Shown here: positions 39,635-54,384 of the stretch, in pieces
Layout of the letters: every line of letters begins with the position of its first letter
How positions within the stretch are numbered: the first letter of the stretch is position 1
DNA from: an uncultured euryarchaeote
GTDB lineage: Archaea; Thermoplasmatota; Poseidoniia; Poseidoniales; Poseidoniaceae
Reading direction: 5' to 3'
Length of the DNA stretch: 64,000 bases
Assembly (NCBI GenBank): GCA_937899865.1
Contig: CALBRH010000025.1
Coordinates: forward strand, 32,001 to 96,000
The notes under the pieces: model-generated
Databases searched by the model: none
What the model was told of the DNA's origin: nothing
What the model saw: the letters and a program-made list of their open reading frames with translations, nothing else
Made by a program: the position numbers and the translations under genes

Positions 39635-39845
39635 GCACAAACCTATCCGATACTATTGATGAATTATTGCATTTTGGCATATTTTTGTGAAAAATCCGAT
39701 ATTTATGTCTAAATTCGTTAAAATTTATGGCAAAAATGTGGCTTAGTGAGCCTTTTATGCACTTTGAATGAAAAACCATTCATTACGACTTAAAGCCCCC
39801 TAAGCAACCGATTCTTTGAATAACTGCCTTGTACAACCCGTGGCT

Positions 39846-40286
39846 ATGGTAGGGCTACGTCTGTCTCGTCGAGCCCGAAAGTTTCTGAAGAAGATTCAAC
39901 GCGCTCCAGGCAAATATGAACTCCAAGAAGCGGCCTCTACAATCCAAGCAGAATTGGATAAGCGACTAATTTCTTATGATGAGGCATTGACTCTCGGCAA
40001 CATCATTCAACATCGTGCTGATCAATTCGTTGACGATGATACAATTGTCTATGCGATTTCAGACCGCGATGCTTATCGAAGGACATTGGAGTTGTATCTA
40101 AGAGATGCACTCTTAAGCAAGACAGAGCAACTACTGTTGTGGGAAGAAAGGCGCCGTTTAGGAATCAGCGATAGGGATCACGAACGCCTTCTTGAGCAAT
40201 TACTTGCTCAGTGGAGGAAACAGGGTAAGAAGGTCAATATCGATAGTTTCGAAGCTCCTAAAGGAGGAGGTGGAGTTTCTGCTTAA
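39846..40286 (+). CDS. Hypothetical helical protein (C-terminus weakly TerB-like)
   Basis: ATG 39846; D.LLSKTEQLLL...RRRLGISDRDH pattern; overlaps the next gene. Confidence 0.55.
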   Translation: MVGLRLSRRARKFLKKIQRAPGKYELQEAASTIQAELDKRLISYDEALTLGNIIQHRADQFVDDDTIVYAISDRDAYRRTLELYLRDALLSKTEQLLLWEERRRLGISDRDHERLLEQLLAQWRKQGKKVNIDSFEAPKGGGGVSA

Positions 40287-43200
40287 CCGTGGTAAAACAG
40301 CGATAGCAGTCATGCTGTTAGTTATGTTTGTGACGCCTATGGCAACGCCGTTTGCATCATCTGAAGCAACAACATCAGCCAGGGCATCACCTGATTTTAG
40401 TGTCACAAATTTCGTATTGGATGGCGCTGGTTCAGTTAAAGACGGTGTCAACATCTATGTTGAGAACGCGACACATGTAGCTAGAATAGTTGTTTCAAAT
40501 ACTGGTTCAGCAGCAGGGACAGTCGTTGTTTCATTATATCACCAAGGTTCATCATCATCGGCTAAGACTTTAGTTTCTGCAATTGAAGTTGGTCCAATTT
40601 CACCGGGCACCTCTCACATTCCTGTTTTGATTGATTGGACTGCTTCTCCGGGTAACGGTCAGAGCCTTTATGCTGAAACGTTCTCATTGTCAGATACAAA
40701 CTCTGGTAATAATGAGTGGAGGCTTGATTTTGACGTTAGAAGCGCTCCACGTTATCTAGTAGGTACAGTACTAAGCTCCACTATTCCATCACCAGAGGCC
40801 GGACAAACTGAGGCCGTAATTGATAATGGTATTACTCCAATTAACGCAACAGTTCAGAACGACGGCGTAGAAACAATTACGGCAAACTTCAAATTGCTAT
40901 TTGAAGATCCAACAGACCCCGCAATAACTCACAATTTTGAAACAGGTGAGATTTTTATTGACCCAGGTTCACTTCATGTCGGCCCGATTCCATCTAATGG
41001 TAGTATAAACTTTGATGGTTCTGTGCTAACCGGTATTTGGACTCTTACCGCTTCTGTTGTTTTCATTGGAACTGGTGGCTGGACGGACACGCATGTCATA
41101 AGCACGACTACCGTTAGGTTCTCTGAGTATTCGGCCACACTATCTTCTCCAGCAGATAGAACCACCGAGCCCGGCTTGGTTACAACTCTAAATTACTGGC
41201 TTACCAATACTGGTTCACAAGACGATTTCTTCGATATCGGCATTACTTCTACTCAAGGTTGGGCCGATATGACATTAAATACCCAACAAACAACCAGTTT
41301 TTCTCCCGGAGTCACTATTAGCATTCAAGTTGAAGTTTCAGTGCCTTTGAATGCAGCTAGAACAGATATTGACACTATTGTTTTGACGCTGACTTCAGTG
41401 AATGATCCAACCGTTCCAAGATATTCCCTTACGGCTTCAACCATGGTGATGGCAGGTGAGTCATACATTGCAATCCTAGATATGCCAGCCACAACACAAC
41501 TTGTAGTCCCTGGCGATGAAGTAGGATTTAATGCCACGATTGAAAACGATGGTAATGCCAAAGGCTCTTATGACCTCATTGCTGGTTTTTCTACAACATC
41601 AAGTAGATGGAGTGTTAGGTTAGGTGCTACTACGACTGCAATTTTGGATCTGGGAGAGGTTGCAACATTTTCAGTAAACATCACCGTTCCGCCAATCAAA
41701 ATGCCTAATGATATCGCCGATCATAACAAAGAAGCGGATACTTTGAGTGTATGGGTTCAAGCAATACCATCTAATGGCGGTATCCCAGTCACTGCTAGTA
41801 CTCCATTAGAAGTTGCACCTGTTATCGTTGTAGATCCAGGTTTAGAGGAAGAAACCATTGAACTCACAGTAGATGATGTAATAGCAGCAAAGAATGGTAA
41901 TGGCGTTGAAATATTTAGGCACATGGATATTGAAGTACGACATAATCTAAATAATCCCTTGATAGCTACCGTTGATGGATTAATCGAAACGGGCAACTTG
42001 TCCTTCACTCCAACTAATAGCGGCGGATTTAGTGAAATTACTAGATGGAACGCGAGTGTTTCTAACGAATCACTTCTTGCAATGTCATTGGGTAGTACTA
42101 AGATTGGCGCATTAGGCGTTCAAGGTCCAGATGCCGATTATCCGTTAGCAGGAGTTTTGAGTGTTCCAGTCGTTGCATCGATACCAACTCCACCTTTGAT
42201 TCCTAACTTGGTTACTACTTCGATTGAGCGTAATATATCGATAAATATTCCTTCAATTCAAGGAGCAGATATAGTAGACAAAGGTCCATTTGATGTCCCA
42301 CTCGGCGAGACTACTGCTATCCCACTCCTGCTGGAAAATACTGGTAACGATTTAACCTCGTATAGATTGTCAATAATGGATGATTTGCCAGATGGTTGGG
42401 TTACATCAATAAACACCGCTGGCTCAGGCGGCGATACTATACTTGATTTGTCAGCTGATGTAGCAGACTACCCAGATAGTGGAAACTTGCACATGCGCGA
42501 CTTTGTGTTGAATGTGGCAACAGACCCGCAAGCAGCGGCTTACTCTATTCAAGATGTAAATATCAAGATTGAAGATAGTACATCAGGGTTACTAATCGAT
42601 ATAGTTCCCGTTTCGATAAGAGTTGGACCGTATGTTAATGCTTCACTTTCTCCTACCAGTCAATTAGTAGATATCAACACAACTTTAGCTGAAACTCCGC
42701 TTACTAGAGTTTACGTAACAAATACAGGAAATACTCCGACAATCTATTCTTTGTGGCTAGACGATTCTCTCGCAGGTGAGGTTGATTTTACACTTGAGAG
42801 TCCTAATCAAATTTTGATAGCACCCGGATATACTGATTCAGTAAAAGTTCGACTATCTGCCACAAATGATGCAGATTCTGATGGTTTTTACAAATCAACG
42901 CTTTGGGTTTCAACTGAAACTGGCGTCAATATGAGTGCCGATATCATTGCAAACGTAAGTGAGCAAAGAGATCTAAGTATCGATGCACCATTCCAAATTG
43001 GCGTGCTTCCTGGTCAAGACCAAGTTGTCAACTTCACTGTAACTAACTCTGGGAACCTTGAGGAAACTTTCGATGTAGAAGTAGCAGTTGATGGAGGCTG
43101 GGTAGTAGTTCCAGCCTCTCAATCAATGACTCTGCCAATAGATGAGGAAATACAAGGTAGTGTGACTGTTTCTGTTCCTGAACTTGGTGAAGGTATTTCT

Positions 43201-45147
43201 CTTAACGATGGTTCTGTTCATAATTTGACCATTCGCTTGGTTGACCCTGCTACAGAACTTACCGCAGGCGTGGCAGTAGTTAGAATGCTAATCTCGCCAA
43301 TGTTTATTCTTGAAGTGGTCGAATGGGAAGATGAAATGCTGTATCATAGATACTGGAATCGAACATTTGAAGCAACTGTCATAAACATGGGTAATCGAGA
43401 TGTTACTGTAGATTTGACTTATGCAATAAATAAGCCCGGTGGAGTGATAGAAAGTAGTGATTGGATGCTTCAATCCGGAGCACCTACAAGTCTATTCATG
43501 CCAGTCGGTCAAAATATCTCCTTCCAATTTGTTGTTAGCGCTCAAGAAATAAGCCCCGATCTTGGATTATATGCGCTTCTTTCAGTTCACTTAACTCCGC
43601 AGGATGCGGGTATTGATGGCGAAGGATACCTTAATTCAACCCTTAAAATGTCAAGATTCTTTGAGCCGAGCGATATTGACCTTAAACCAGATGAAACAGA
43701 TGGCCCAATGACGGTAGAAATCACGTATTCACACATTCCTATTGGCGCATCTAATGCCGTTGCCTATGAACTTGAGTTGTGTGCTGCAGAGCGATTATTT
43801 GATTTCAGCTCAGCCGGTTTAGATGAATCACTGTACCCATGGTCATTCACACTTGTTGTCGATGATTCTACATCGGTACCATTGTCTCTATCTCCAGAGG
43901 ACTGTGGCAGTAGTTCAGCAGGTGCTGAGTCTAGGATTCAACTTCCAACAAGAGAGGCTTGGGATGTTAGCAATCCGCTAACTATTGTTGTTGACGCACC
44001 AAATCGTCCAAATATCATTACTGAGGATGGTTGGGACTTAACATTCAGACTATTCCATCCAACAGAAAATAGTGGATATACCGTATTCAATGAGTCAACA
44101 TTTACTTTCCAGTTAGATGTCTTCGCTGACCCTAGTGTTAGTGAAGTATGGATAAGTTCTGGTACTATGGAAGAAGGCACAGATGCAACAATAAGTGCTA
44201 AAATCCGTAATGATGGAACTGCACTAGCCTTGTTCTTTACCGCCTCTCTAGAATGTTCAGGCTCTACTGTTAATACTCAAGTCGATCCAATTGTACAACT
44301 TGGTCCAAATAACGAGACAACCGTTAGTTGGGGCATTACTTCAGAAACTATTGATTGGTGGAGGCAATCTATTGATGGTACTTGTGTAGTTGAACTTGAT
44401 ACAGACATGATTGCGAAAAATGTCGAAGGAAATGATCGTTATGTCTACAAGGATGAAGTTTACTCTTGGTCTCCAGGTCAATCTTCATCCTTTGTCGCGT
44501 TTATCATCTTTGGATTATTATCACTTGTATTGGCAAGATTAAACGGTCAAAATGAGAAATTCCGTCTGTTTTCGATATATTCTGGAATTTTGGCATTTGG
44601 TTTTGCTTTCCACTTATTCAATATCATTTTTTGGGGTCCTGCTGTACTTACTATTGCCGCTCTTTGGTTATGGCGTATGACTTGGATGAGCACAGAAGAA
44701 TTTAGATTGATTCACGAAGATTATCAAAGAGCAAGGAAAGGTGTATCAACATTATATGCCGACCATTTTCAAGCACTTGCAGATAGTAGGAGACAACTGA
44801 GAATAATTCTTGCATTGCCAGTATTTGGGTTGTTAGGTGTTGTGCTGGGTATTCCACCTCAAATTGATACCAGTCAAGAGAATTTAATGACAATCGCTGC
44901 ATATGTCCTGATATTAGCAGTTGGAGTTTGGATTCTAGTTCGTAGAGCAGATGCAATGTATGGCGCTCTATATGGCCGATTAACCGATGTAGAAGTTAAG
45001 GCAATTCGTATCGAAAGAGATTTATCGGACCCGGCGCGATTATTACATGACTTAGCTAATGATGGAATCGACCTTGATGCTATTTTTGACGATTTGCACT
45101 CTGGCAGAGAGGTTGGAATGGACGAGGAGGTGAGAGAAGATGTCTGA
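40270..45147 (+). CDS. Giant (about 1625 aa) surface protein with CARDB/NEW3-like Ig repeats and about 5 C-terminal TM helices
   Basis: Signal peptide after GTG near 40270 (preceded by GGAGG; exact start uncertain); repeated N-x-G-N/S...D/E...GW modules; polytopic C-terminus. Confidence 0.75.
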   Translation: MEFLLNRGKTAIAVMLLVMFVTPMATPFASSEATTSARASPDFSVTNFVLDGAGSVKDGVNIYVENATHVARIVVSNTGSAAGTVVVSLYHQGSSSSAKTLVSAIEVGPISPGTSHIPVLIDWTASPGNGQSLYAETFSLSDTNSGNNEWRLDFDVRSAPRYLVGTVLSSTIPSPEAGQTEAVIDNGITPINATVQNDGVETITANFKLLFEDPTDPAITHNFETGEIFIDPGSLHVGPIPSNGSINFDGSVLTGIWTLTASVVFIGTGGWTDTHVISTTTVRFSEYSATLSSPADRTTEPGLVTTLNYWLTNTGSQDDFFDIGITSTQGWADMTLNTQQTTSFSPGVTISIQVEVSVPLNAARTDIDTIVLTLTSVNDPTVPRYSLTASTMVMAGESYIAILDMPATTQLVVPGDEVGFNATIENDGNAKGSYDLIAGFSTTSSRWSVRLGATTTAILDLGEVATFSVNITVPPIKMPNDIADHNKEADTLSVWVQAIPSNGGIPVTASTPLEVAPVIVVDPGLEEETIELTVDDVIAAKNGNGVEIFRHMDIEVRHNLNNPLIATVDGLIETGNLSFTPTNSGGFSEITRWNASVSNESLLAMSLGSTKIGALGVQGPDADYPLAGVLSVPVVASIPTPPLIPNLVTTSIERNISINIPSIQGADIVDKGPFDVPLGETTAIPLLLENTGNDLTSYRLSIMDDLPDGWVTSINTAGSGGDTILDLSADVADYPDSGNLHMRDFVLNVATDPQAAAYSIQDVNIKIEDSTSGLLIDIVPVSIRVGPYVNASLSPTSQLVDINTTLAETPLTRVYVTNTGNTPTIYSLWLDDSLAGEVDFTLESPNQILIAPGYTDSVKVRLSATNDADSDGFYKSTLWVSTETGVNMSADIIANVSEQRDLSIDAPFQIGVLPGQDQVVNFTVTNSGNLEETFDVEVAVDGGWVVVPASQSMTLPIDEEIQGSVTVSVPELGEGISLNDGSVHNLTIRLVDPATELTAGVAVVRMLISPMFILEVVEWEDEMLYHRYWNRTFEATVINMGNRDVTVDLTYAINKPGGVIESSDWMLQSGAPTSLFMPVGQNISFQFVVSAQEISPDLGLYALLSVHLTPQDAGIDGEGYLNSTLKMSRFFEPSDIDLKPDETDGPMTVEITYSHIPIGASNAVAYELELCAAERLFDFSSAGLDESLYPWSFTLVVDDSTSVPLSLSPEDCGSSSAGAESRIQLPTREAWDVSNPLTIVVDAPNRPNIITEDGWDLTFRLFHPTENSGYTVFNESTFTFQLDVFADPSVSEVWISSGTMEEGTDATISAKIRNDGTALALFFTASLECSGSTVNTQVDPIVQLGPNNETTVSWGITSETIDWWRQSIDGTCVVELDTDMIAKNVEGNDRYVYKDEVYSWSPGQSSSFVAFIIFGLLSLVLARLNGQNEKFRLFSIYSGILAFGFAFHLFNIIFWGPAVLTIAALWLWRMTWMSTEEFRLIHEDYQRARKGVSTLYADHFQALADSRRQLRIILALPVFGLLGVVLGIPPQIDTSQENLMTIAAYVLILAVGVWILVRRADAMYGALYGRLTDVEVKAIRIERDLSDPARLLHDLANDGIDLDAIFDDLHSGREVGMDEEVREDV

Positions 45148-46351
45148 AGAAAAATCCGAAGAGGAAATAGATTTTGATCTCGATGATATCCTTGAAGATG
45201 AAGTAGTTGATGAGATTCAACTTGAAGATATTGAAATGGAGAACGAGCCTGACGATAGTTCCGAATCAAGTGATTCAGAAGATGAAGCCTCAGGTACATC
45301 ATTCCAAGACAGAGTTAGGGAGTACATGGGAGAGTTAGAAGACGAAACTTTCCATGAGCCACCAGTGCAAGTTGACGACGAGCCCGAGCCTGAGCCTGAA
45401 CCTGAGCCTGTTGAAGAGGTTGTAGAATCGACAGATGTATCCGATGATGTCATCAATGAAGTTGAAAGTAGAATAATGTCTGCTTCGCGAGAACTTGACA
45501 GTTTGGTTCAAGGAGTAATCCAACAAGATAGCAATTCCCTTGCAGCAACTGAGCTGGATATAATGGAAGCAAAGAAATATCTTTCATTACACAAATTAAA
45601 GCGAGCGAAAAGTAGTGTCAGAAAGGCTGAGAAGGCTCTTGTTACACTAGAAGAAGACGTGCTCTATTTGCGTAGAAGCATTGCAATGTTACACCGTTTG
45701 TTGAAAGAAAAGAAAATCGATAGAATCGAGGCAGAAAATATTCTAATCGGTCTAAGGAAGGCTACTTCCAATGCAGAAATTGGTGATGTTGGTCAAGCGG
45801 CTACTGAAATTGAATTCTTAGTTGACGATTTGATTGGCGGTAATACTTCAACACTCAACCCATTCTTTTTCCGCCATTTTTGGCTTGGAGTAGATACTCG
45901 TTGGCCTGCTGGAGGTGATTCTGGAGTATTGCTTGTTAGATTGATCAATGACGGGCCAATTGCCATGCCGGCAATGCGCTTGTCTCCACCAGTTCCAGAA
46001 GGTTGGAGTTCAATTCCTTCTTCAGTTGACCTGCCAATTATTGCTCCAGGCGGCAATCTGCCACTAAGATTTGATATCAAGTCTGAAGGCAGATATGGTG
46101 CTGACGAAATCCCATTGTCCCGAAAGTTGGCTGTTTCAACAGGCTATGAAATGCGCTCTGGTGAAATAATGGTTACAATTAGAGCACAGAATCGCTCTAT
46201 GGAGCCGCTTTCAGATGTTATACTCTCGCCGTGGTTGCCTCCGGGTTATACTACGGCAAAAGTTCCGTTTGTGGAACGTTTATCCCCCGATGAGGTAGCG
46301 GTAATTAGAATGCCGCTGACCATCGACATGGGCACAGGAGGTAGTTCCTGA
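45140..46351 (+). CDS. Hypothetical cytoplasmic protein: acidic disordered N-terminus, coiled coil, C-terminal Ig-like domains
   Basis: Overlaps the upstream stop by 8 nt; preceded by GAGGTGAG; no signal peptide or TM seen. Confidence 0.65.
   Translation: MSEEKSEEEIDFDLDDILEDEVVDEIQLEDIEMENEPDDSSESSDSEDEASGTSFQDRVREYMGELEDETFHEPPVQVDDEPEPEPEPEPVEEVVESTDVSDDVINEVESRIMSASRELDSLVQGVIQQDSNSLAATELDIMEAKKYLSLHKLKRAKSSVRKAEKALVTLEEDVLYLRRSIAMLHRLLKEKKIDRIEAENILIGLRKATSNAEIGDVGQAATEIEFLVDDLIGGNTSTLNPFFFRHFWLGVDTRWPAGGDSGVLLVRLINDGPIAMPAMRLSPPVPEGWSSIPSSVDLPIIAPGGNLPLRFDIKSEGRYGADEIPLSRKLAVSTGYEMRSGEIMVTIRAQNRSMEPLSDVILSPWLPPGYTTAKVPFVERLSPDEVAVIRMPLTIDMGTGGSS
45379..45410 (+). repeat. 6-bp tandem repeat (GAGCCY/GAACCT) encoding EPEPEPEPEP
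   Basis: gagcccgagcctgagcctgaacctgagcctg visible in sequence. Confidence 0.8.
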
Positions 46352-46401
46352 GCCCAAATCATATTCCACCCGTAAAGCGGGAGGACGAGAAAAAAACAAA
46401 A

Positions 46402-46407
46402 AGGTGA
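46402..46407 (+). promoter_or_regulatory. Shine-Dalgarno AGGTGA of arlB1
   Basis: 5 nt upstream of ATG 46413, embedded in A-rich leader. Confidence 0.7.
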
Positions 46408-46412
46408 AAAAA

Positions 46413-47006
46413 ATGAAAAGAAAAGAAATAACGAACGAAGAAAGCAATACCCTTGCTGCAATGGGTATCGGTGCGATGATTGTATTTATCGCATTGATTC
46501 TTGTTGCGGCAGTGGCATCAGCGGTCATTATACAGACCGCTGAAAAGTTGCAGCAGAATGCACAGACCACAGGTGACCAAACCCAACAACAGATGGCAAG
46601 TAAGATTACGCCGTTGAGTGTTGTTGTGCAAATAGAAGCAGGTGTTGCACCTAATGCTGCAGCCACTGAAGATGTACTTAGAGTGACATTTGAACTTGCT
46701 CCTGGCTCCGAAAATGTAGACCCAGCAAATGCAGTTTGGAACGTAGTCTGTGAATTAGGCGTTGATGCTGGTGATTTAACTGGTTTTGGAAGAGTAAGCA
46801 CCCACACGCCAGAGCAAATTGCTGCTAACTTACTATACCCTGGTGAAATCTATGAGGTTTCAATAACACTCGGGGCAGCAACTCCTGGTTGCGATATGGA
46901 ATTGAATACTGCTCATTACCTAATGTTCCAAGCCGGAAATGCAGGATTCACATATGAAGTAATGAACTATGGTGGTTCAAATTCAGTTGGGACGGTGATA
47001 ATTTGA
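46413..47006 (+). CDS. arlB: Archaellin 1
   Basis: Class III signal peptide and N-terminal helix GIGAMIVFIALILVAAVASAVIIQTA..LQQ.A..TG. Confidence 0.95.
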   Translation: MKRKEITNEESNTLAAMGIGAMIVFIALILVAAVASAVIIQTAEKLQQNAQTTGDQTQQQMASKITPLSVVVQIEAGVAPNAAATEDVLRVTFELAPGSENVDPANAVWNVVCELGVDAGDLTGFGRVSTHTPEQIAANLLYPGEIYEVSITLGAATPGCDMELNTAHYLMFQAGNAGFTYEVMNYGGSNSVGTVII

Positions 47007-47566
47007 AGTCAAACAAAGAAACCCAAAACAATGACAACTGGGCTGCAATTGGTATTGGTGCAATGATTGTATTCATTTCGCTAATTTTGGTCGCAGCGGT
47101 TGCTTCTGCGGTTATAGTTCAAACTGCTGAAAAACTTCAGCAGAATGCTCAAAGAACCGGTGAAGATACTTCTGATGAACTGTCAGGTAAAATCACAATT
47201 CAATCAGGATATATCCAAAATGGTGGCGAGTATGTGCTTTATGTTAGACTAGGTGCAGGTAGCGATACAATTCAAACCGTAGATATATCATACCAATTGT
47301 ATTGTAATGCCGGAGCAGGATATGAATTTTCCCCACTGGATAATACAATGGTTCAATTACAATCTGATGCAAATTTTGCAGGTGGCGAAGATGAACTATT
47401 AGTTGCGGATCCATACAAGATTATGATTACGCCTGTTGAATGTACAGCTGCAGCAGTTAGTGCTGCTGATGGTAGAGTCGCACTTTATCTGCATGTAGAA
47501 GACGGCGGAACCACATACGAAATGTTACAATTTAATGTCGACGATGATGGAACCCCAATTATCTGA
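47003..47566 (+). CDS. arlB: Archaellin 2
   Basis: GIGAMIVFISLILVAAVASAVIVQTAEKLQQNAQRTG; TTG start overlapping the arlB1 stop. Confidence 0.95.
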   Translation: MKSNKETQNNDNWAAIGIGAMIVFISLILVAAVASAVIVQTAEKLQQNAQRTGEDTSDELSGKITIQSGYIQNGGEYVLYVRLGAGSDTIQTVDISYQLYCNAGAGYEFSPLDNTMVQLQSDANFAGGEDELLVADPYKIMITPVECTAAAVSAADGRVALYLHVEDGGTTYEMLQFNVDDDGTPII

Positions 47567-47573
47567 TGTTGCT

Positions 47574-47602
47574 TGCTGTTGAGAATTAATTTCTCGACGG
47601 CA
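47574..47602 (+). terminator. 12-bp intergenic stem-loop after the archaellins (terminator/attenuator or mRNA stabiliser)
   Basis: TGCTGTTGAGAA-TTAAT-TTCTCGACGGCA, 12 pairs including two G-U; directly followed by SD AGGAGGTG (47603-47610). Function inferred. Confidence 0.55.
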
Positions 47603-47615
47603 AGGAGGTGTACTA

Positions 47616-48473
47616 ATGGCTTGGCCATTTAGTAATAACACAGGTAATATTCGAGATGCAGATGCCGAACTAAGTGAAGAGCGACTCAAAATATTGTCAA
47701 ACGTGGCAATTGAACAGGTCCCACTTCCTGAAGAGGGAGAACTTAGTGAAGAAGATGCATGGACGATTTCACCAGGTCCGACGAGGGCTAAGATGAACAG
47801 CATCGGTAGTGTACCGACAGTGGCACAAACACTGGCGCCATCACAACCCGCTCAAGTCAATGCTCAAGTCGACACATCTGGATTGGAGCGATTGATCAGC
47901 AGCCGTCTCGACATGGTCGAGGATGTACTAGGATTGGTCGAAAAACGCCTTGAAGAAAGCATGACATTTAGTCCTGAAGGACAAAAGGTTGATGCTGAAG
48001 GCAATCCAATCGTTCATGATGATTCTGAGGAAGCAGAAATCGGAGCAGGAGATACGATTATCACCGCAAGTGGTGAAGTTATTCCTGCTGCGGGAGTTAA
48101 CCGCTTGATGGCAGAAGATGAGGCGCCATTGGTTGAGTTGTATGAAGCCCAAGCTTTAGCAGCCAACCCATTCCTTGTCGCACCTTCTTCAGGCCCAACA
48201 ACTGAAGCAAACAAAGTTGGAGCACCGACTGTTGCTGCTCTATTACTTGACAATATGTCGGGTATGGCTGCAGTAAATTTTGTTCAGAAGGCGATTAATT
48301 CAGGCATGCTAAATCAAGATGAAGGCAATTCAGTATTGGCGATTGTTCAACTTGCAACGCCAGGCGAAGCCGAAGAGGCATTAGAAGACCATCTTCCGCA
48401 TAGAGAATTGCTAACATTTTCAGCATTGGTAACATCTTGGAGACAAGTAAAGCAACTTAGAGGAGAAGAATGA
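47616..48473 (+). CDS. Divergent ArlC/D/E-like archaellum accessory protein
   Basis: Position between arlB and arlF; coiled-coil segment; C-terminal helices (NSGMLNQ..., DHLPHRELL) only weakly resemble the FlaD/E domain. Confidence 0.5.
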   Translation: MAWPFSNNTGNIRDADAELSEERLKILSNVAIEQVPLPEEGELSEEDAWTISPGPTRAKMNSIGSVPTVAQTLAPSQPAQVNAQVDTSGLERLISSRLDMVEDVLGLVEKRLEESMTFSPEGQKVDAEGNPIVHDDSEEAEIGAGDTIITASGEVIPAAGVNRLMAEDEAPLVELYEAQALAANPFLVAPSSGPTTEANKVGAPTVAALLLDNMSGMAAVNFVQKAINSGMLNQDEGNSVLAIVQLATPGEAEEALEDHLPHRELLTFSALVTSWRQVKQLRGEE

Positions 48474-48474
48474 A

Positions 48475-49122
48475 ATGGGAGCATCGGTCGGTATTGGTGG
48501 CCTGATTGTTGGCACTTCGATGTTGGTAGTATTAGCGTTAGCCGTTAATGCTGTTGATCTTCGATTAGAGTCATCATTAGAAACCATTGAATCGGCCAAT
48601 GAACTATCACCAACCTTCACTATAGATAATGCAGATATCGCTTTAGGAGCAGTTACTGCATTACAATTAGATGATCCAGGAACTGGATATGTAAATGGAA
48701 CGTTAAGCGCCACAGGCGGCGGTGGTTCTGGATTTTCTGGAACTTTTACAGTCAACAACAGCGGAGCAATAATCTCATGGTCAATCACCAACCATGGAGA
48801 TTACTCGTCCGACCCAACTATTGTTATTGACGGTCCGCAACCTGGTGGCGTAAACGGCTCATTTTCGGTTGTTGCAAGAACTACAGTTGTTGATGTAACC
48901 ATCACTAATACTGGTTCTGTTATTGTCCCAGTGAACGAAGTATGGATGTTCCTTGATGGAGAAAATGCCCGAAATTTGGCAAAGTTAGCGCCTATAACAG
49001 ACTCCGAGACTTTTTTTCCCGGCGATACAGTTGAAGTTATATGGCGCGGGCATGCAAATAATGTATTTGAAGTAGCAGCGCTTTCTTGTAATGGATTTAA
49101 CACCGCAAGAGTACTTGTATGA
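48475..49122 (+). CDS. arlF: Archaellum stator component ArlF (FlaF)
   Basis: MGASVG... N-terminal hydrophobic helix; V.ITNTGSV, VWMFLDG, FFPGDTV; operon position. Confidence 0.75.
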   Translation: MGASVGIGGLIVGTSMLVVLALAVNAVDLRLESSLETIESANELSPTFTIDNADIALGAVTALQLDDPGTGYVNGTLSATGGGGSGFSGTFTVNNSGAIISWSITNHGDYSSDPTIVIDGPQPGGVNGSFSVVARTTVVDVTITNTGSVIVPVNEVWMFLDGENARNLAKLAPITDSETFFPGDTVEVIWRGHANNVFEVAALSCNGFNTARVLV

Positions 49123-49131
49123 GGTATTATT

Positions 49132-49635
49132 ATGGCAGACGGAGGAGCATCTACATTCATTTTCTTGACAACCGCTCTATTAGTATCAGGTGCAGTTTCA
49201 GCAGTACTAATTAGTCAATATGGAGACATAACTTCAGCCATGGAGGCTGAACGTCGAGAAAACGAAGCGGATGCTAAAACTTCATTCGAATTTGCTGGCG
49301 ATTTAGCTAATGTGGCGTATGATAATGATCCTATCAACCCAACTGAGACAATCACCTTTTACTTACAGAATACTGGGGAATATGTCATCGATGAAGGTTC
49401 ATTATTTGTTCAATTAAATGGTTCTGTAATTGCAGATGCAAATGTTTCCACAACTGTTCTTCCTACTGGAGGCGCATGGGGTAATACAAATTTACTCGAG
49501 GTTGAAATATCAGGCGCATGGGGCTTTGCGGACAATACTGACATCAATCTTACAGTTTTGGTACAATCTGTTCTTGTTAGCGGATACCAAGGAGAAGATG
49601 TAGAATCTACGGTGGTGAGATTAAATGAATTATGA
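49132..49635 (+). CDS. arlG: Archaellum stator component ArlG (FlaG)
   Basis: MADGGASTFIFLTTALLVSGAVS N-terminal helix; FYLQNTG; position. Confidence 0.8.
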   Translation: MADGGASTFIFLTTALLVSGAVSAVLISQYGDITSAMEAERRENEADAKTSFEFAGDLANVAYDNDPINPTETITFYLQNTGEYVIDEGSLFVQLNGSVIADANVSTTVLPTGGAWGNTNLLEVEISGAWGFADNTDINLTVLVQSVLVSGYQGEDVESTVVRLNEL

Positions 49636-50356
49636 TGATCCATTGAATTTCCCCCATAAGCCGGTTGAAGACGGTTTTGCCTTTGATGTAGAAACAGATT
49701 CACTCGCCGATACGATGGGACTTAGATTGCCTAATCGCTCACTATACGTCTTACAGGGTGTAGTCGGTGCAGGAAAATCACTAATATCTCAAAGATTAGT
49801 TCACGGAATGCTTGACAACGGCGTGAAAGTTTTAGTTGTAACAACAGAATTGACCACTCGAGGCTGGATAGAACAGATGGAATCGATTGGTTACGGCATT
49901 ACAGATGCGTTGCGTGAAGGCCGTTTGATGGTTTTCTCGCGGTTCGGTACAGTTGCAGAAGCCAGAGCAGAAGTTGGTCTTGAAGAGGTATTGAACAGCG
50001 AAGCTGTTGGCGAGGCTGATGTTGTCATACTTGATTCAGCAAGTGCCTTGATGCCTGACAACCTTGACGATAAACAGCGTTTTGATTTAATGCAGAAATT
50101 GAGAAAAATTACCGCTGAAGGGCGTTCAGTAATGTTATGTGTTGACCCTGATGAAATGGATCACAAATTGTTGCATAATATGAGGGCTTCTTCAGAAGTA
50201 GTACTCGACCTTTCCACAGCATTAATCGGTGGCGATTTGAAAAGAAATATTGTTGTAACTAGATTCCTAAGAGCAGCAGGTCCAGTTCAAACAAGCGTTG
50301 GTTGGCGTGTTGAGCCAAGTATGGGCTTCATCGTAGATATTACTGCAGTTAGTTGA
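49625..50356 (+). CDS. arlH: Archaellum RecA-family ATP-binding protein ArlH (FlaH)
   Basis: GVVGAGKS Walker A, VVILDS, C-terminal WRVEPSMGFIVDI. Confidence 0.92.
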   Translation: MNYDDPLNFPHKPVEDGFAFDVETDSLADTMGLRLPNRSLYVLQGVVGAGKSLISQRLVHGMLDNGVKVLVVTTELTTRGWIEQMESIGYGITDALREGRLMVFSRFGTVAEARAEVGLEEVLNSEAVGEADVVILDSASALMPDNLDDKQRFDLMQKLRKITAEGRSVMLCVDPDEMDHKLLHNMRASSEVVLDLSTALIGGDLKRNIVVTRFLRAAGPVQTSVGWRVEPSMGFIVDITAVS

Positions 50357-50367
50357 GAGGAGTTATC

Positions 50368-52086
50368 ATGGCAGAAGAATCAAGATTTGCAAAGGGCGAC
50401 CTTAATGGCGTCATGGCGGCCTATCCGCATGTTGCAGATTGGATTCGAGATTTCGAATCTCGTTATGGTTCACGCCCTATTTACTACGGTCCTTTGGATA
50501 GAGATGCCAAGAAGACGAGACCTTACAATTTGATTTACTTGGCTAAAGAGCCAATTTTTATTCACATTTATGAACCACCAGAAGATGATGAAGGTAATGG
50601 AGGTCAAATCCTATGGTTTGGTCTTGAACCGCAACTTTCTGAAGAAGAAGAAAATATGCGTCGAGAATTAGTTGAAACATTGTTACAAGAAGCACCAACT
50701 GCTCCGACTTTTACCACTGATGGCGAATTTGAAAATATTTTGACTCAAATGATAGAGCGCTATTCCGTTCTTGAAAGCGAAGTTGGTGTCACCCCAAGGC
50801 GACAAGGTCGTTTATGGGAAATGGTTGGTATGGATGACAAGCGTGTTGTAGTTGATACAGAACAAAGAGAGCGTCTAAAATATATTATTATTCGAGATTT
50901 AATTAAGAATGGACCACTAGAGCCACTACTTTCTGATGAGATGCTGGAAGATATTCACTCCGTAGGATTGAAGCATATCCATATGGATCACAAAGTATTC
51001 GGGATGGTGACCTCTAATATTAGATTTAGAGAACGTGAGATGTTATCTCGCTATCTAAGGGCCATGTCAGAACGTATTGGCCGTCCAGTTTCTGACAACA
51101 AACCAATTATTGACGGTGCGTTGCTTGACGGTTCACGTATCAATATCATATTCTCTGATGACGTATCTATGCTAGGTCCGTCATTCACAATCCGTAAATT
51201 CGCTGAAGAAACAATTTCAATTATCCAACTAATCAAATGGGGTACAATTTCCTCGCAAGTAGCTGCATATATCTGGATTTGTCTTGAGTACGGTATGTCT
51301 GTTTTGGTATCTGGTGAAACAGCATCAGGTAAAACGACAACACTTAACGCGATTCTACCATTTATTGACCACAATGTCAAAATCTATTCCGCTGAAGATA
51401 CTCCTGAGGTAAAGGTCAGGCACAAGATTTGGCAGAGATTAGTCACACGTGATTCCAAGAATGAAGAATCAAGAGTTGAGATGTTCGATTTGCTGAAGGC
51501 TGCACTACGAAGTCGTCCAAGATACATCATCATCGGTGAAATTCGTGGAGTAGAGGGTGCGACAGCTTTCCAAGCGATGCAGACTGGCCACCCGGTTATC
51601 GCGACTTTCCACGCATCATCAATCGTTAAGATGATTCAGAGATTCACTGGTGACCCAATCAATGTTCCAATTCGTTTCTTTGACAACTTGAACTTCGCTA
51701 TTTTCCAAGAAGTAGTTGAAGCACCTGGTGGCGGTATTGCTCGACGTGTAACCGGTATCGATGAGGTAATTGGTTACAATAAACACAGTGACGGTGTTCT
51801 AACTCGTGGTATGTTCGAGTGGGACCCTGTCAAAGACAAACACTATTTCCGCGGTATGTTCCAAAGCCACTTGTTAGAAAACAAGATTGCTGCTATGGCT
51901 GGATTTTCCAATAAGAGGGATATCTATGATGAAATGTTGAGAAGAGCTGCCTCTTTGGAAAGGATGGCTGAAAGAGATTTAACACATTATGATGATGTGT
52001 TTGACTTGCTTGGCATTTACTACAATAATGGATTCGAAGCCTTCGACCGAGCAGTTGACACTTGGACAGGGGTCAATCACGGTTAG
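50368..52086 (+). CDS. arlI: Archaellum assembly/motor ATPase ArlI (FlaI)
   Basis: GETASGKTT, SAEDTPE, LRSRPRYIIIGEIRG, GHPVIATFHA; SD GAGGAG at 50357-50362. Confidence 0.96.
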   Translation: MAEESRFAKGDLNGVMAAYPHVADWIRDFESRYGSRPIYYGPLDRDAKKTRPYNLIYLAKEPIFIHIYEPPEDDEGNGGQILWFGLEPQLSEEEENMRRELVETLLQEAPTAPTFTTDGEFENILTQMIERYSVLESEVGVTPRRQGRLWEMVGMDDKRVVVDTEQRERLKYIIIRDLIKNGPLEPLLSDEMLEDIHSVGLKHIHMDHKVFGMVTSNIRFREREMLSRYLRAMSERIGRPVSDNKPIIDGALLDGSRINIIFSDDVSMLGPSFTIRKFAEETISIIQLIKWGTISSQVAAYIWICLEYGMSVLVSGETASGKTTTLNAILPFIDHNVKIYSAEDTPEVKVRHKIWQRLVTRDSKNEESRVEMFDLLKAALRSRPRYIIIGEIRGVEGATAFQAMQTGHPVIATFHASSIVKMIQRFTGDPINVPIRFFDNLNFAIFQEVVEAPGGGIARRVTGIDEVIGYNKHSDGVLTRGMFEWDPVKDKHYFRGMFQSHLLENKIAAMAGFSNKRDIYDEMLRRAASLERMAERDLTHYDDVFDLLGIYYNNGFEAFDRAVDTWTGVNHG

Positions 52087-52097
52087 GAGGTTTGAGT

Positions 52098-53900
52098 ATG
52101 GAGAGAATGCCGATCTGGCAAGTAGCGGTTAGACGGCTTGAAATGCCGATTGCGCGTTTCTTATTCATCTTCGTAGGCGGTGCTACATTTGCTGGATTGT
52201 TGGCTGCGTTAGCTCTTATTTTCTTCACCGGTGGATTAGGTGAAGGAGCGTTATTCCAAGGCTTTGCTGGAATTTTAATGATCATTGTTTTTCCTTTGAT
52301 TTGTGCCCTTGCTGCATTAGCATTTCCACTACTTGAAGTTCAACGCTCAGCCACTAGAATAGAGAAAGAAATGCATATGTTCATTACAAGAATGGGTATA
52401 CTTTCTCTTGGAGAAGTAGGCGCAAAATCAATTTTTGATATTCTCAAGCAGATGTCAGATTATGGAGAATTGGCCTCTGAAGTAAAGCGTATTGAGACAT
52501 TGGTAGACAAGTGGCATACATCTTTACCAGAGGCAGCCAGAATTGTTGCACATCAAAGTCCAAGCCCATTGTGGACCGATTTTCTCGACAGAATGGCGTT
52601 TTCAATTGAAGCGGGTCAGCCAATCGATGAGTTTATGCGTGCTGAACAAGAAACAGTTGCTGAGCAATATAACACTCTTTACGATACAAGATTAGAATCA
52701 GTTGATACGCTCAAGGAGATTTATGTCTCATTAGTTTCAGCAGGCTTATTTGCTTTGGTTATCGCTGGCATACATCTTGTTCTGTTTGAGGTTGGCTCAC
52801 CCGATGCAGAACCGATTGAGATTTTTAGTAGAATTAGATTCTTGCTACTTGCGGGACTTGTTTTTGTTATTGTCCAAATTGGTGCAATGTTTGCTTTTAG
52901 AGCAACAATACCCGAAGACCTAACCTTTGCTAGAGATGATATGGATACGCCATTTAGAATCAATTTCCGGCGAGCTTTTTTGGTGGCAGGTGCATTTTCA
53001 ATCTTACTTTCAGTAGTCATGTCGATAGCTGTAATGTCTGCTTGGGAGGTGCTAAGTGACCAATGGGATAAGTATGGATTACTGGTTTTTGCGATTCCTC
53101 TAACTCCACTACTATTTCCAGCATTTATGATAGGTCGAGAAGAAAAAATGGTTTTACGTAGAGATGAAACATATCCTGATTTTATTAGGGCTCTTGGAGG
53201 AACTGCTCAGGCTAGGTCTTCTGAACCATCTGCAACTATCAAGGCGCTGCGAGGTATTGATTTTGGTATGTTAGATAATTCAATTGACAGACTCGAAAAG
53301 CGGCTTTCGACAAGAATTGATTCGGATAGAGCTTGGGATTACTTCAACGCTGATACAAATTCAGCGGTTATTTCTCGCTACATGAGAATTTACATCGAGG
53401 GTTCACAGTCATCTGGTAGGCCAGCGGAAACCGCTGAGATGGTCAGCCGATCTGTTGGTAGTTTACTGTCTCTAAGGCGAAGACGTGCACTTTCTGCCAG
53501 TACTATGTGGGGTGTTGCAATCGGTTTGTTAGTCGCTAGTGTAACAAGCCTCAACGTAACAATTTCAATTGTTTTGCAACTTGGAGATGCGATTGCTGGC
53601 GTGGCAAGTGGACTTGCAGATACTGATGTTTCAGCCCTTTCTGACTTTGGTGGAGGTGTTGCATTGCCGGTTATGGAGGATGCTAGTTCGGTCGGAGAAA
53701 ATATTAGGATGTTCAAAATTGTAGTATCGATTTTGGTTCTCATTCAGGTTGCAGCTGTCTCTTACATAGCCACAAGATTGCGTGGTGGTGGTATTACTAG
53801 TTCGTTAGGACAAATGATTTCCTTATTGTGGATTGCCGGTATTACTTCTTTACTTACGGCATTTATACTTGAAGCAGCATCTTCAATATTCTCGGTCTAA
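52098..53900 (+). CDS. arlJ: Archaellum platform membrane protein ArlJ (FlaJ)
   Basis: Multi-TM; two T2SSF-like cytoplasmic domains (MHMFITRMGIL..., YPDFIRALG); SD AGGAGGT at 52085-52091. Confidence 0.92.
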   Translation: MERMPIWQVAVRRLEMPIARFLFIFVGGATFAGLLAALALIFFTGGLGEGALFQGFAGILMIIVFPLICALAALAFPLLEVQRSATRIEKEMHMFITRMGILSLGEVGAKSIFDILKQMSDYGELASEVKRIETLVDKWHTSLPEAARIVAHQSPSPLWTDFLDRMAFSIEAGQPIDEFMRAEQETVAEQYNTLYDTRLESVDTLKEIYVSLVSAGLFALVIAGIHLVLFEVGSPDAEPIEIFSRIRFLLLAGLVFVIVQIGAMFAFRATIPEDLTFARDDMDTPFRINFRRAFLVAGAFSILLSVVMSIAVMSAWEVLSDQWDKYGLLVFAIPLTPLLFPAFMIGREEKMVLRRDETYPDFIRALGGTAQARSSEPSATIKALRGIDFGMLDNSIDRLEKRLSTRIDSDRAWDYFNADTNSAVISRYMRIYIEGSQSSGRPAETAEMVSRSVGSLLSLRRRRALSASTMWGVAIGLLVASVTSLNVTISIVLQLGDAIAGVASGLADTDVSALSDFGGGVALPVMEDASSVGENIRMFKIVVSILVLIQVAAVSYIATRLRGGGITSSLGQMISLLWIAGITSLLTAFILEAASSIFSV

Positions 53901-53943
53901 TGAGATTGTCAAGTATTATAGATTGATTTTACAATCACCAATT

Positions 53944-54384
53944 ATGCAACCGGCACCCGGACCCCCTGTACAAGCCCCCGCACCTCAACCTATGCAGCCA
54001 ATGGCAGCATACCAACCACAACCAAAATTTCTTGATAAGTATGGCACTTACACCTTTAGTAAGTGGCTGATGATTGGCGCAGTATTGATTGTTATCGGAG
54101 CGATGTTTACTCAGGTGACAGATTTGGTTGGTGCGCCTAATCCTGCAGATTATGATGATGCAGGTAAGTATGCTGAAGATCAATTCTCACATGAGAAACT
54201 TGGCACAACACTTGGAGCGTTTGCAAATATGTTGCAATCAATAGGTTTGGGTCTAATTGGTTACGGCCTACTTAGAGAAGCCAGTGAAGGAGATGCTCAC
54301 CACACAGCAGTTAGAGTGACAGCAGTAATCACTGGTGTATTGGTAATTGGAAATATTGCAGCAGCGAATATATTGCCAATTTGA
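53944..54384 (+). CDS. Hypothetical membrane protein, Pro/Gln-rich N-terminus, 3 TM
   Basis: ATG 53944; hydrophobic segments; co-oriented after arlJ. Confidence 0.6.
   Translation: MQPAPGPPVQAPAPQPMQPMAAYQPQPKFLDKYGTYTFSKWLMIGAVLIVIGAMFTQVTDLVGAPNPADYDDAGKYAEDQFSHEKLGTTLGAFANMLQSIGLGLIGYGLLREASEGDAHHTAVRVTAVITGVLVIGNIAAANILPI

Follow-up and report, generated by a model that had tools for sequence, protein, structure and literature searches.

The closest described counterparts of the locus considered here are the euryarchaeal archaellum (arl) clusters of the arl1 type, such as those of Pyrococcus, Haloferax and Oxyplasma meridianum (PMC12448462), in which the genes follow the order arlB-arlC-arlD/E-arlF-G-H-I-J. 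The stretch under study, positions 39846-54384, lies within a window of 64,000 nucleotides (the whole stretch of DNA that was analyzed; contig CALBRH010000025.1, positions 32,001 to 96,000) from an uncultured archaeon of the family Candidatus Poseidoniaceae, order Poseidoniales. Candidatus Poseidoniaceae corresponds to Marine Group IIa, and no other planktonic archaea are as abundant in the surface ocean as those of Marine Group II (MGII). In common with the arl1-type clusters, the locus encodes archaellins of family PF01917, ArlF and ArlG, followed by ArlH, ArlI and ArlJ, and the genome carries, outside this locus, a gene for a FlaK-type signal peptidase. It differs from them in that no match to ArlC or ArlD/E was found, a gene for a protein of 285 amino acids (aa), here called X, being present instead; in that there is no che or cheF gene; and in that three extra, coupled genes, here called A, B and C, precede arlB.

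The B-C pair, joined by A in Poseidoniales, is a conserved and uncharacterized accessory module of the archaellum cluster, and its role is probably that of fitting the motor into the cell envelope. The reading that we favor, and to which we would give an even chance, is that the entire stretch is a single archaellum cluster, the first genes of which form an undescribed, membrane-spanning accessory module acting as a scaffold. Mapping of open reading frames (ORFs) confirmed the layout described in the initial annotation, an unbroken run on the plus strand in which A overlaps B, B overlaps C and the arl genes follow; positions 39846-54384 are filled by thirteen ORFs, all on that strand.

Gene B (40270..45147, plus strand) starts with GTG at 40270 and encodes a protein of 1,625 aa with a signal peptide, an immunoglobulin (Ig)-like array and five transmembrane (TM) helices. 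The ectodomain consists of about 1,350 Ig-like residues, with matches to FixG_C and CARDB above the cut-offs and to Ig_VWA7 and NPCBM_assoc (NEW3) just below them. At the C-terminus, hydropathy and modeling indicate five hydrophobic helices, a charged loop of about 45 aa and an acidic tail of about 65 aa, the latter two being predicted to be cytoplasmic; the AlphaFold model of the last 350 aa reached a predicted local distance difference test (pLDDT) score of 80. When this model was used in Foldseek searches, the Ig domain alone was matched, the matches being generic Ig-like folds that included the CARDB domain of PF1109 and domains of Fsx1, and a PDB sequence search with B gave no match. The genome contains only one copy of the membrane domain. 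Within the genus, the membrane and cytoplasmic part is the best-conserved portion of the protein (60-66% identity, versus 26-54% for the ectodomain), and hardly any variation is seen within Poseidoniaceae in the cytoplasmic loop and tail, a pattern that fits what would be expected of a fast-evolving exposed surface combined with a fixed internal partner. According to hydropathy, the B-like proteins of all loci compared share the same organization of signal peptide, Ig array, four to six TM helices and charged tail.

Gene C (45140..46351, plus strand) encodes a protein of 403 aa with neither a signal peptide nor a TM segment, and hence predicted to be cytoplasmic. Its AlphaFold model (pLDDT 73) comprises an acidic disordered region (residues 1-100), a five-helix bundle (102-233) and two Ig-like beta-sandwiches (247-395), and the protein carries a conserved NPF site at residues 240-242. 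PF10633 (NEW3) was matched at 14.7 bits against a cut-off of 24.4 bits, PDB sequence searches were empty or trivial, and the nearest Atlas clusters, at scores of 0.94-0.95, are automatically named 'COG1470 family'. The three genes are tightly packed. The last 17 nt of A overlap the start of B, and B and C overlap by 8 nt (ATGTCTGA), the ATG of C being preceded by the Shine-Dalgarno-like sequence GGAGGTGA; in G027, which belongs to another family, the B/C junction reads TAG-ATG. Because C starts inside the end of B, it was concluded that C is made by translational coupling.

Inside the order, the module and the archaellum genes are inherited together and lost together in three families. The gene order A-B-C-arlB-X-F-G-H-I-J was identical in the ORF maps of loci from f1, f2 and f3. 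All 24 genomes of the genus carry C, as do G027, G033 and G040; these are the genomes with a true ArlH, and C is present in 0/13 genomes lacking ArlH. In the sole exception, G035, which has ArlH and no C, the contig breaks off 1.3 kb upstream of arlH. B was tracked through its unique membrane domain in a sample of 121 genomes of the order. This domain and ArlJ were both present in 72/121 genomes and both absent in 44/121, and the five discordant genomes (5/121) were all incomplete assemblies, two of the matches lying at contig ends. Counted by genus, B occurred in 12/13 genera with ArlJ and in 0/8 genera without it. As the genomes counted are relatives and not independent, these tallies describe a pattern and do not constitute a test. 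Both the synteny and the co-occurrence with arl genes that the initial annotation had put forward for checking were therefore upheld by the 121-genome sample and the ORF maps of the three families, and within the order the genes were never seen unlinked to arl genes or in genomes devoid of them.

The pair also extends beyond Poseidoniales. A search with the C profile against 1.84 billion representative proteins returned just 81 matches. All four of the distant full-length homologues of C lie directly upstream of arlB; three follow a protein of 1,262-1,679 aa and the fourth follows one truncated by the contig end. Faint CARDB matches were present in two of the three large proteins, and ArlC and/or ArlD/E is encoded downstream in the three loci that are long enough. 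Scans of the phylum detected full-length C in 28 genomes outside the order. In 26 of these (families f19, f36, f11, f45, f46 and f21) C and ArlD/E share a strand, with C lying 1.5-3 kb upstream, and in the other two C and ArlD/E are on separate contigs. The whole order B-C-arlB together with ArlC/D/E was confirmed at the G057 locus, and in L047 and L054 no more than 14-24 bp separate C from arlB. The B-C pair, to the exclusion of A, heads arl operons in at least six Thermoplasmatota families outside the order, and its occurrence there beside ArlC/D/E indicates an extra part, not a replacement. The upstream genes had been annotated as a possible lineage-specific accessory module; synteny and co-occurrence bear out the accessory, arl-tied character, and lineage specificity holds true of A only.

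Downstream of the module, the window contains archaellins, an ArlF/ArlG stator pair and an ArlH/ArlI/ArlJ motor core, all on the plus strand. The two archaellin genes, arlB1 (46413..47006) and arlB2 (47003..47566), match PF01917 at 2.2e-22 and 3.8e-17, respectively, both above the cut-off. The arlF-like gene (48475..49122) matches the ArlF model NF052590 at 1.5e-4, which is below the cut-off, and its position and N-terminal TM segment fit an ArlF stator protein. ArlG (49132..49635) was recognized by NF052591 (2e-15, below the curated cut-off) and PF01917 (5.9e-8), its place in the gene order and its N-terminal TM segment being likewise in agreement, and ArlH (49625..50356), a KaiC-like ATP-binding protein, by NF052589 (3e-52; 177.6 bits, cut-off 215) and by PF06745 above its cut-off. 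The ATPase gene arlI (50353..52086) matches PF00437 (T2SSE, 1.7e-37) and the platform protein gene arlJ (52062..53900) matches PF00482 (T2SSF, 2.8e-13). The last gene of the run (53938..54384, plus strand) encodes, as judged from its ORF and hydrophobic segments, a small membrane protein with three TM segments and a Pro/Gln-rich N-terminus, matched by no family model; homologues occur in L017 and L018, and it was seen only within the genus. According to family models, the flanking genes are on the other strand and unrelated, being AhpC and a hexapeptide transferase upstream and Nth and PolX downstream. In two genera (g11 and g142) of the Thalassarchaeaceae type, the ArlJ match falls inside an open frame of 1,172-1,185 aa, which approximates the summed length of ArlI and ArlJ (G374:C99:3079-4863, G324:C18:5560-7344, G344:C1:82965-84767 and relatives), and ArlI and ArlJ may be fused in one frame in these genera.

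Gene X (47616..48473, plus strand) lies between arlB2 and arlF, the position of arlC plus arlD/E in other Thermoplasmatota, and had been annotated as 'arlCDE-like'. By position this description stands; by family models it does not, as neither PF04659 nor PF05377, nor indeed any Pfam or NCBIfam model, was matched by X, and neither of the two was matched by any other protein of the window. X is present in all Poseidoniales loci examined, and of its 1,065 homologues every one named at source is a 'hypothetical protein'. PF04659 (ArlD/E) was detected in 115/301 Thermoplasmatota genomes, and was absent from this genome and from all 71 genomes of the class searched (0/41 in f1, 0/22 in f3 and 0/8 in f4). 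Both X and C were considered as diverged forms of ArlD/E and rejected: Pfam showed no such match for either, and the hhalign probabilities were 0.2-3% (0.3% for C against ArlD/E). For X, the comparisons with ArlC/D/E (probability at most 3%, best E-value 0.014) align the same colinear stretch in both cases, made up of an NPF site and, after it, a helical segment, which was retained as a hint only; one Atlas neighbor at 0.86 contains 13% Arch_fla_DE members. X may be regarded as a positional analogue of ArlC/D/E and only possibly as a very distant relative. An NPF-type site after a helical stretch is present in C (240-242), in X (184-187) and twice in ArlC/D/E proteins of other Thermoplasmatota (L047:9880-11211, L048:10172-11200 and L049:4009-5253), and may represent a docking motif shared by these proteins.

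The absence of che and cheF from the window, as stated in the initial annotation, extends to the genome, which is 91% complete: no match to CheF (PF04283), CheW (PF01584) or the methyl-accepting chemotaxis protein model MCP (PF00015) was found in it, while control genomes were matched. A marked absence of chemotaxis genes in MGII had already been published (Rinke 2019, PMC6461757). The accompanying statement that no arlK/pibD gene is present applies to the window; in the genome, a FlaK-type class III signal peptidase is encoded on another contig (G000:C47:16569-17561; L023:1501-2496:+), unlinked to the arl genes. Traced from weak matches in relatives to a protein of about 335 aa, it scores 31.3 bits against PF06847 (cut-off 29.9), matches FlaK (3S0X) at 5.7e-7, has GGAD at the catalytic GxGD site and carries an Arc_PepC_II C-terminal domain. 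PF01478 was unmatched in both window and genome, this model missing the diverged peptidase of Poseidoniales. In one genus, a homologue of the peptidase gene is found directly downstream of arlJ (G035:C23:54150-54707; L016:1-756:-). By these matches the Poseidoniales signal peptidase is present in diverged form, and in this genome it is unlinked. In the two archaellins (46413-46500 and 47003-47080), the N-terminal sequences leading up to the hydrophobic helix are ...NTLAAMGIG and ...DNWAAIGIG. The archaellins studied so far are known for a basic residue just before the cleavage site, and its absence from ArlB1 and ArlB2 may accompany the divergence of the peptidase.

Gene A (39846..40286, plus strand) encodes a cytoplasmic helical protein of 146 aa, the N-terminus of which is basic and which contains a helical motif resembling TerB. 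No Pfam match at an E-value of 0.1 or better was obtained, and the TerB model PF05099 was not matched by A itself; only its residues 70-120 are similar to a motif seen in paralogs, and one of these paralogs scores 31 bits against PF05099, above the cut-off. Identity between families is 47-70%, and in the phylum scan full-length A was confined to f1 and the archaellated genera of f3, i.e., to archaellated Poseidoniales. The paralogs in the same genome (G000:C51:170523-172498, L034, and G000:C51:41163-42155, L035) comprise a zinc-ribbon-flanked protein of 338 aa, encoded directly upstream of a MreB/Salactin-like actin gene, and a helix-turn-helix protein of 330 aa with three copies of the motif. 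In one locus of the Thalassarchaeaceae type (L015, G040:C38, 8999-12235), A and B are separated by about 3.2 kb, whereas elsewhere they overlap.

When the regions upstream of A from 10 Poseidoniaceae genomes were set in register by the conserved N-terminal codons of A, a conserved candidate promoter region was apparent at 39751..39828 (plus strand). It contains the TATA-like block CCTTTTATGC (39751-60), an 18-bp palindrome TGAAT-N8-ATTCA (39765-82), found at no other site of the window, and an invariant block of 21 nt, CCGATTCTTTGAATAACTGCC (39808-28); about 27 nt separate the TATA-like core of this last block from the ATG of A. The palindrome was also considered as the mark of a genome-wide regulon. 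Its relaxed form TGMAT-N8-ATKCA yielded 17 sites against 1 in the control, yet spacers of 4-12 were all as common or commoner and most sites fell within ORFs in the genome scan; the sites were therefore attributed to word composition and the regulon was rejected. No repeat of the invariant block CGATTCTTTSAATAAC beyond chance was found elsewhere, and close to either promoter no TACATA box of the EarA type is present.

The spacer between C and arlB1 contains a small conserved hairpin, CCCG-TAAAG-CGGG (46369..46381, plus strand), the stem of which is preserved through changes on both sides in an alignment of 10 Poseidoniaceae loci. It is followed by an A-rich tract and then by the Shine-Dalgarno sequence GGTGA (46402-06), and no oligo-T terminator is present in the spacer. 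The hairpin may be an element of RNA processing or stability, and the spacer as a whole is compatible with read-through and processing and proves neither. Marine metatranscriptome contigs from two samples of one study, which show neither transcript starts nor levels, cover A, B, C, both archaellins, X, arlF, arlH and arlI, and some of them bridge the B/C junction; stretches not covered by such contigs prove nothing. The leftmost contig (run X1) ends at about 39845. A published Red Sea mdRNA-Seq study (PMC5069720) reports no transcription start site for this operon.

By its predicted topology, B is exported, with its approximately 1,350 Ig-like residues displayed on the cell surface and its five helices holding it in the membrane; its loop and tail face the cytoplasm, where C would dock on them. 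A is a small basic helical addition, restricted to Poseidoniales and coupled to the start of B. The B-C complex would then assemble beside the motor and act as an envelope-side scaffold, most likely by providing a fixed, protein-rich patch of envelope for the ArlF/G stator or for the filament as it emerges; locally, such a patch could replace or modify an S-layer, and C would link it to the cytoplasmic face. A role as stator component or envelope anchor is what we infer from this arrangement. Carried furthest, the proposal would make B-C the missing envelope anchor of the archaellum in those Thermoplasmatota that have no regular S-layer, with a ring or patch of Ig towers at the filament exit gripped by ArlF/G, and with C connecting that ring or patch to the motor inside the cell, which would allow the torque to be withstood in the absence of a crystalline wall; this form of it we consider rather unlikely.

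Several points weigh against the favored reading of an accessory scaffold. Among the RNA contigs listed, none bridges C to arlB1 (46351-46413), and contigs of this kind cannot prove a transcript. Fold searches were generic only: the membrane domain of B had no Foldseek match, and the C model returned generic Ig, PapD, MSP and transglutaminase-barrel matches. Contact of B or C with any Arl protein is hypothetical, and the notion of an 'S-layer substitute' in Poseidoniales rests on analogy. Families f16 (35/35 with ArlD/E), f35, f27 and f30 are archaellated and have no C, so the module is not required for the archaellum in general. Finally, in G043 (f7) a B-C-like pair is located away from the arl genes (L051, G043:C11:134000-153000); after it come genes for two coiled-coil proteins, for a protein matching a DnaJ-type zinc finger and for a STAND-TPR NTPase.

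It is also possible that B is a large adhesin, produced along with the archaellum for attachment to particles, with C and A serving its export, anchoring or signaling, in which case the link to the arl genes would be one of co-regulation and not of membership in the motor. The ectodomain of B is indeed a long Ig-like array of the kind found in surface adhesins and diverges faster than the rest of the protein, and the detached pair in G043 would agree with this. MGII archaella have, moreover, been argued to serve adhesion on the grounds that chemotaxis genes are lacking and that particle fractions are enriched in flaJ (Rinke 2019, PMC6461757). However, an adhesin would have no need of a five-helix foot with invariant cytoplasmic segments or of a stoichiometrically coupled cytoplasmic partner. 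Placement directly upstream of arlB is preserved across nine families, and the pair was never found in non-archaellated Poseidoniales, which also live on particles. On balance, a dedicated adhesin is a serious though minority possibility.

Since Poseidoniales apparently lack the cytoplasmic ring formed by ArlC/D/E or ArlX, it could alternatively be supposed that C, with or without X, replaces it and that the module is the cytoplasmic scaffold or polar organizer of the motor. This would account for the PF04659 distribution given above (115/301 Thermoplasmatota genomes, none in f1, f3 or f4), and both the cytoplasmic location of C with its scaffold-like helical bundle and the NPF-type site after a helical stretch common to C, X and the ArlC/D/E proteins of L047-L049 would agree with it. 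The presence of B-C beside intact ArlC/D/E in six other families has already weakened this explanation; in addition, the hhalign probability of C against ArlD/E was 0.3%, C has no TM segment, unlike ArlX, and the position of ArlC/D/E is held by X, not by C. We therefore regard a replaced ring as improbable. It is more improbable still that A, B and C are unrelated neighbors kept beside the arl genes by descent alone. Kin do share gene order, and most of the genomes counted are kin, so that the tallies overstate independence; even so, the arrangement persists where protein identity between families is 26-32% and recurs in six families outside the order, eight genera have lost these genes along with the arl genes, and the genes overlap one another, with a spacer to arlB of down to 14 bp in some lineages. 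The accessory scaffold thus remains the reading that we prefer.

The MGII archaellum may serve swimming or sticking, and the B-C module is a concrete candidate for the way in which an archaellar motor is held still where no regular S-layer exists. Its arrangement is wider than first assumed, forming the operon head in nine Thermoplasmatota families. The picture of a 'reduced' archaellum in MGII is also corrected, in that there is a signal peptidase, albeit a diverged one, X occupies the ArlC/D/E slot, and the extra genes are no replacement for the ring.

No paper describing the B-C pair was found in the literature. Tully 2019 (Nat Commun, PMC6336850, Fig. 4) presents a putative MGII motility operon with several unannotated orthologous proteins whose neighbors are conserved in MGIIa; the organism group and syntenic region are the same as here, the genes of that figure presumably corresponding to those described here, and the paper contains no description of the proteins, their coupling, their loss together with arl genes or their occurrence outside MGII. 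Compared with ArlX (FlaX) of Thermoproteota and ArlC/D/E of Euryarchaeota, C is likewise helical, probably oligomeric, cytoplasmic and encoded with the motor genes, but it lacks the TM anchor that ArlX has, shows no match to PF04659 or PF05377 and no profile-profile similarity, and coexists with ArlC/D/E in other families. How ArlF/G stators are anchored in the absence of an S-layer was named as an open question in a 2025 study of Thermoplasmatales (PMC12448462). For archaea of other groups, S-layer-like multi-Ig proteins in arl loci are described, in a recent survey covering loci for archaeal type 4 filaments (PLoS Genet 2026, PMC13705601), from Methanococcales (arCOG05057) and Thermococcales, with the proposal that the envelope is locally adapted where it surrounds the filament. 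As far as a comparison by description allows, B differs from the arCOG05057-type proteins in its five-helix membrane domain with conserved cytoplasmic segments and in its coupled partner C, neither feature being mentioned in the article as read, and resembles them in being large, secreted, built of several Ig-like folds and encoded in or beside the arl genes.

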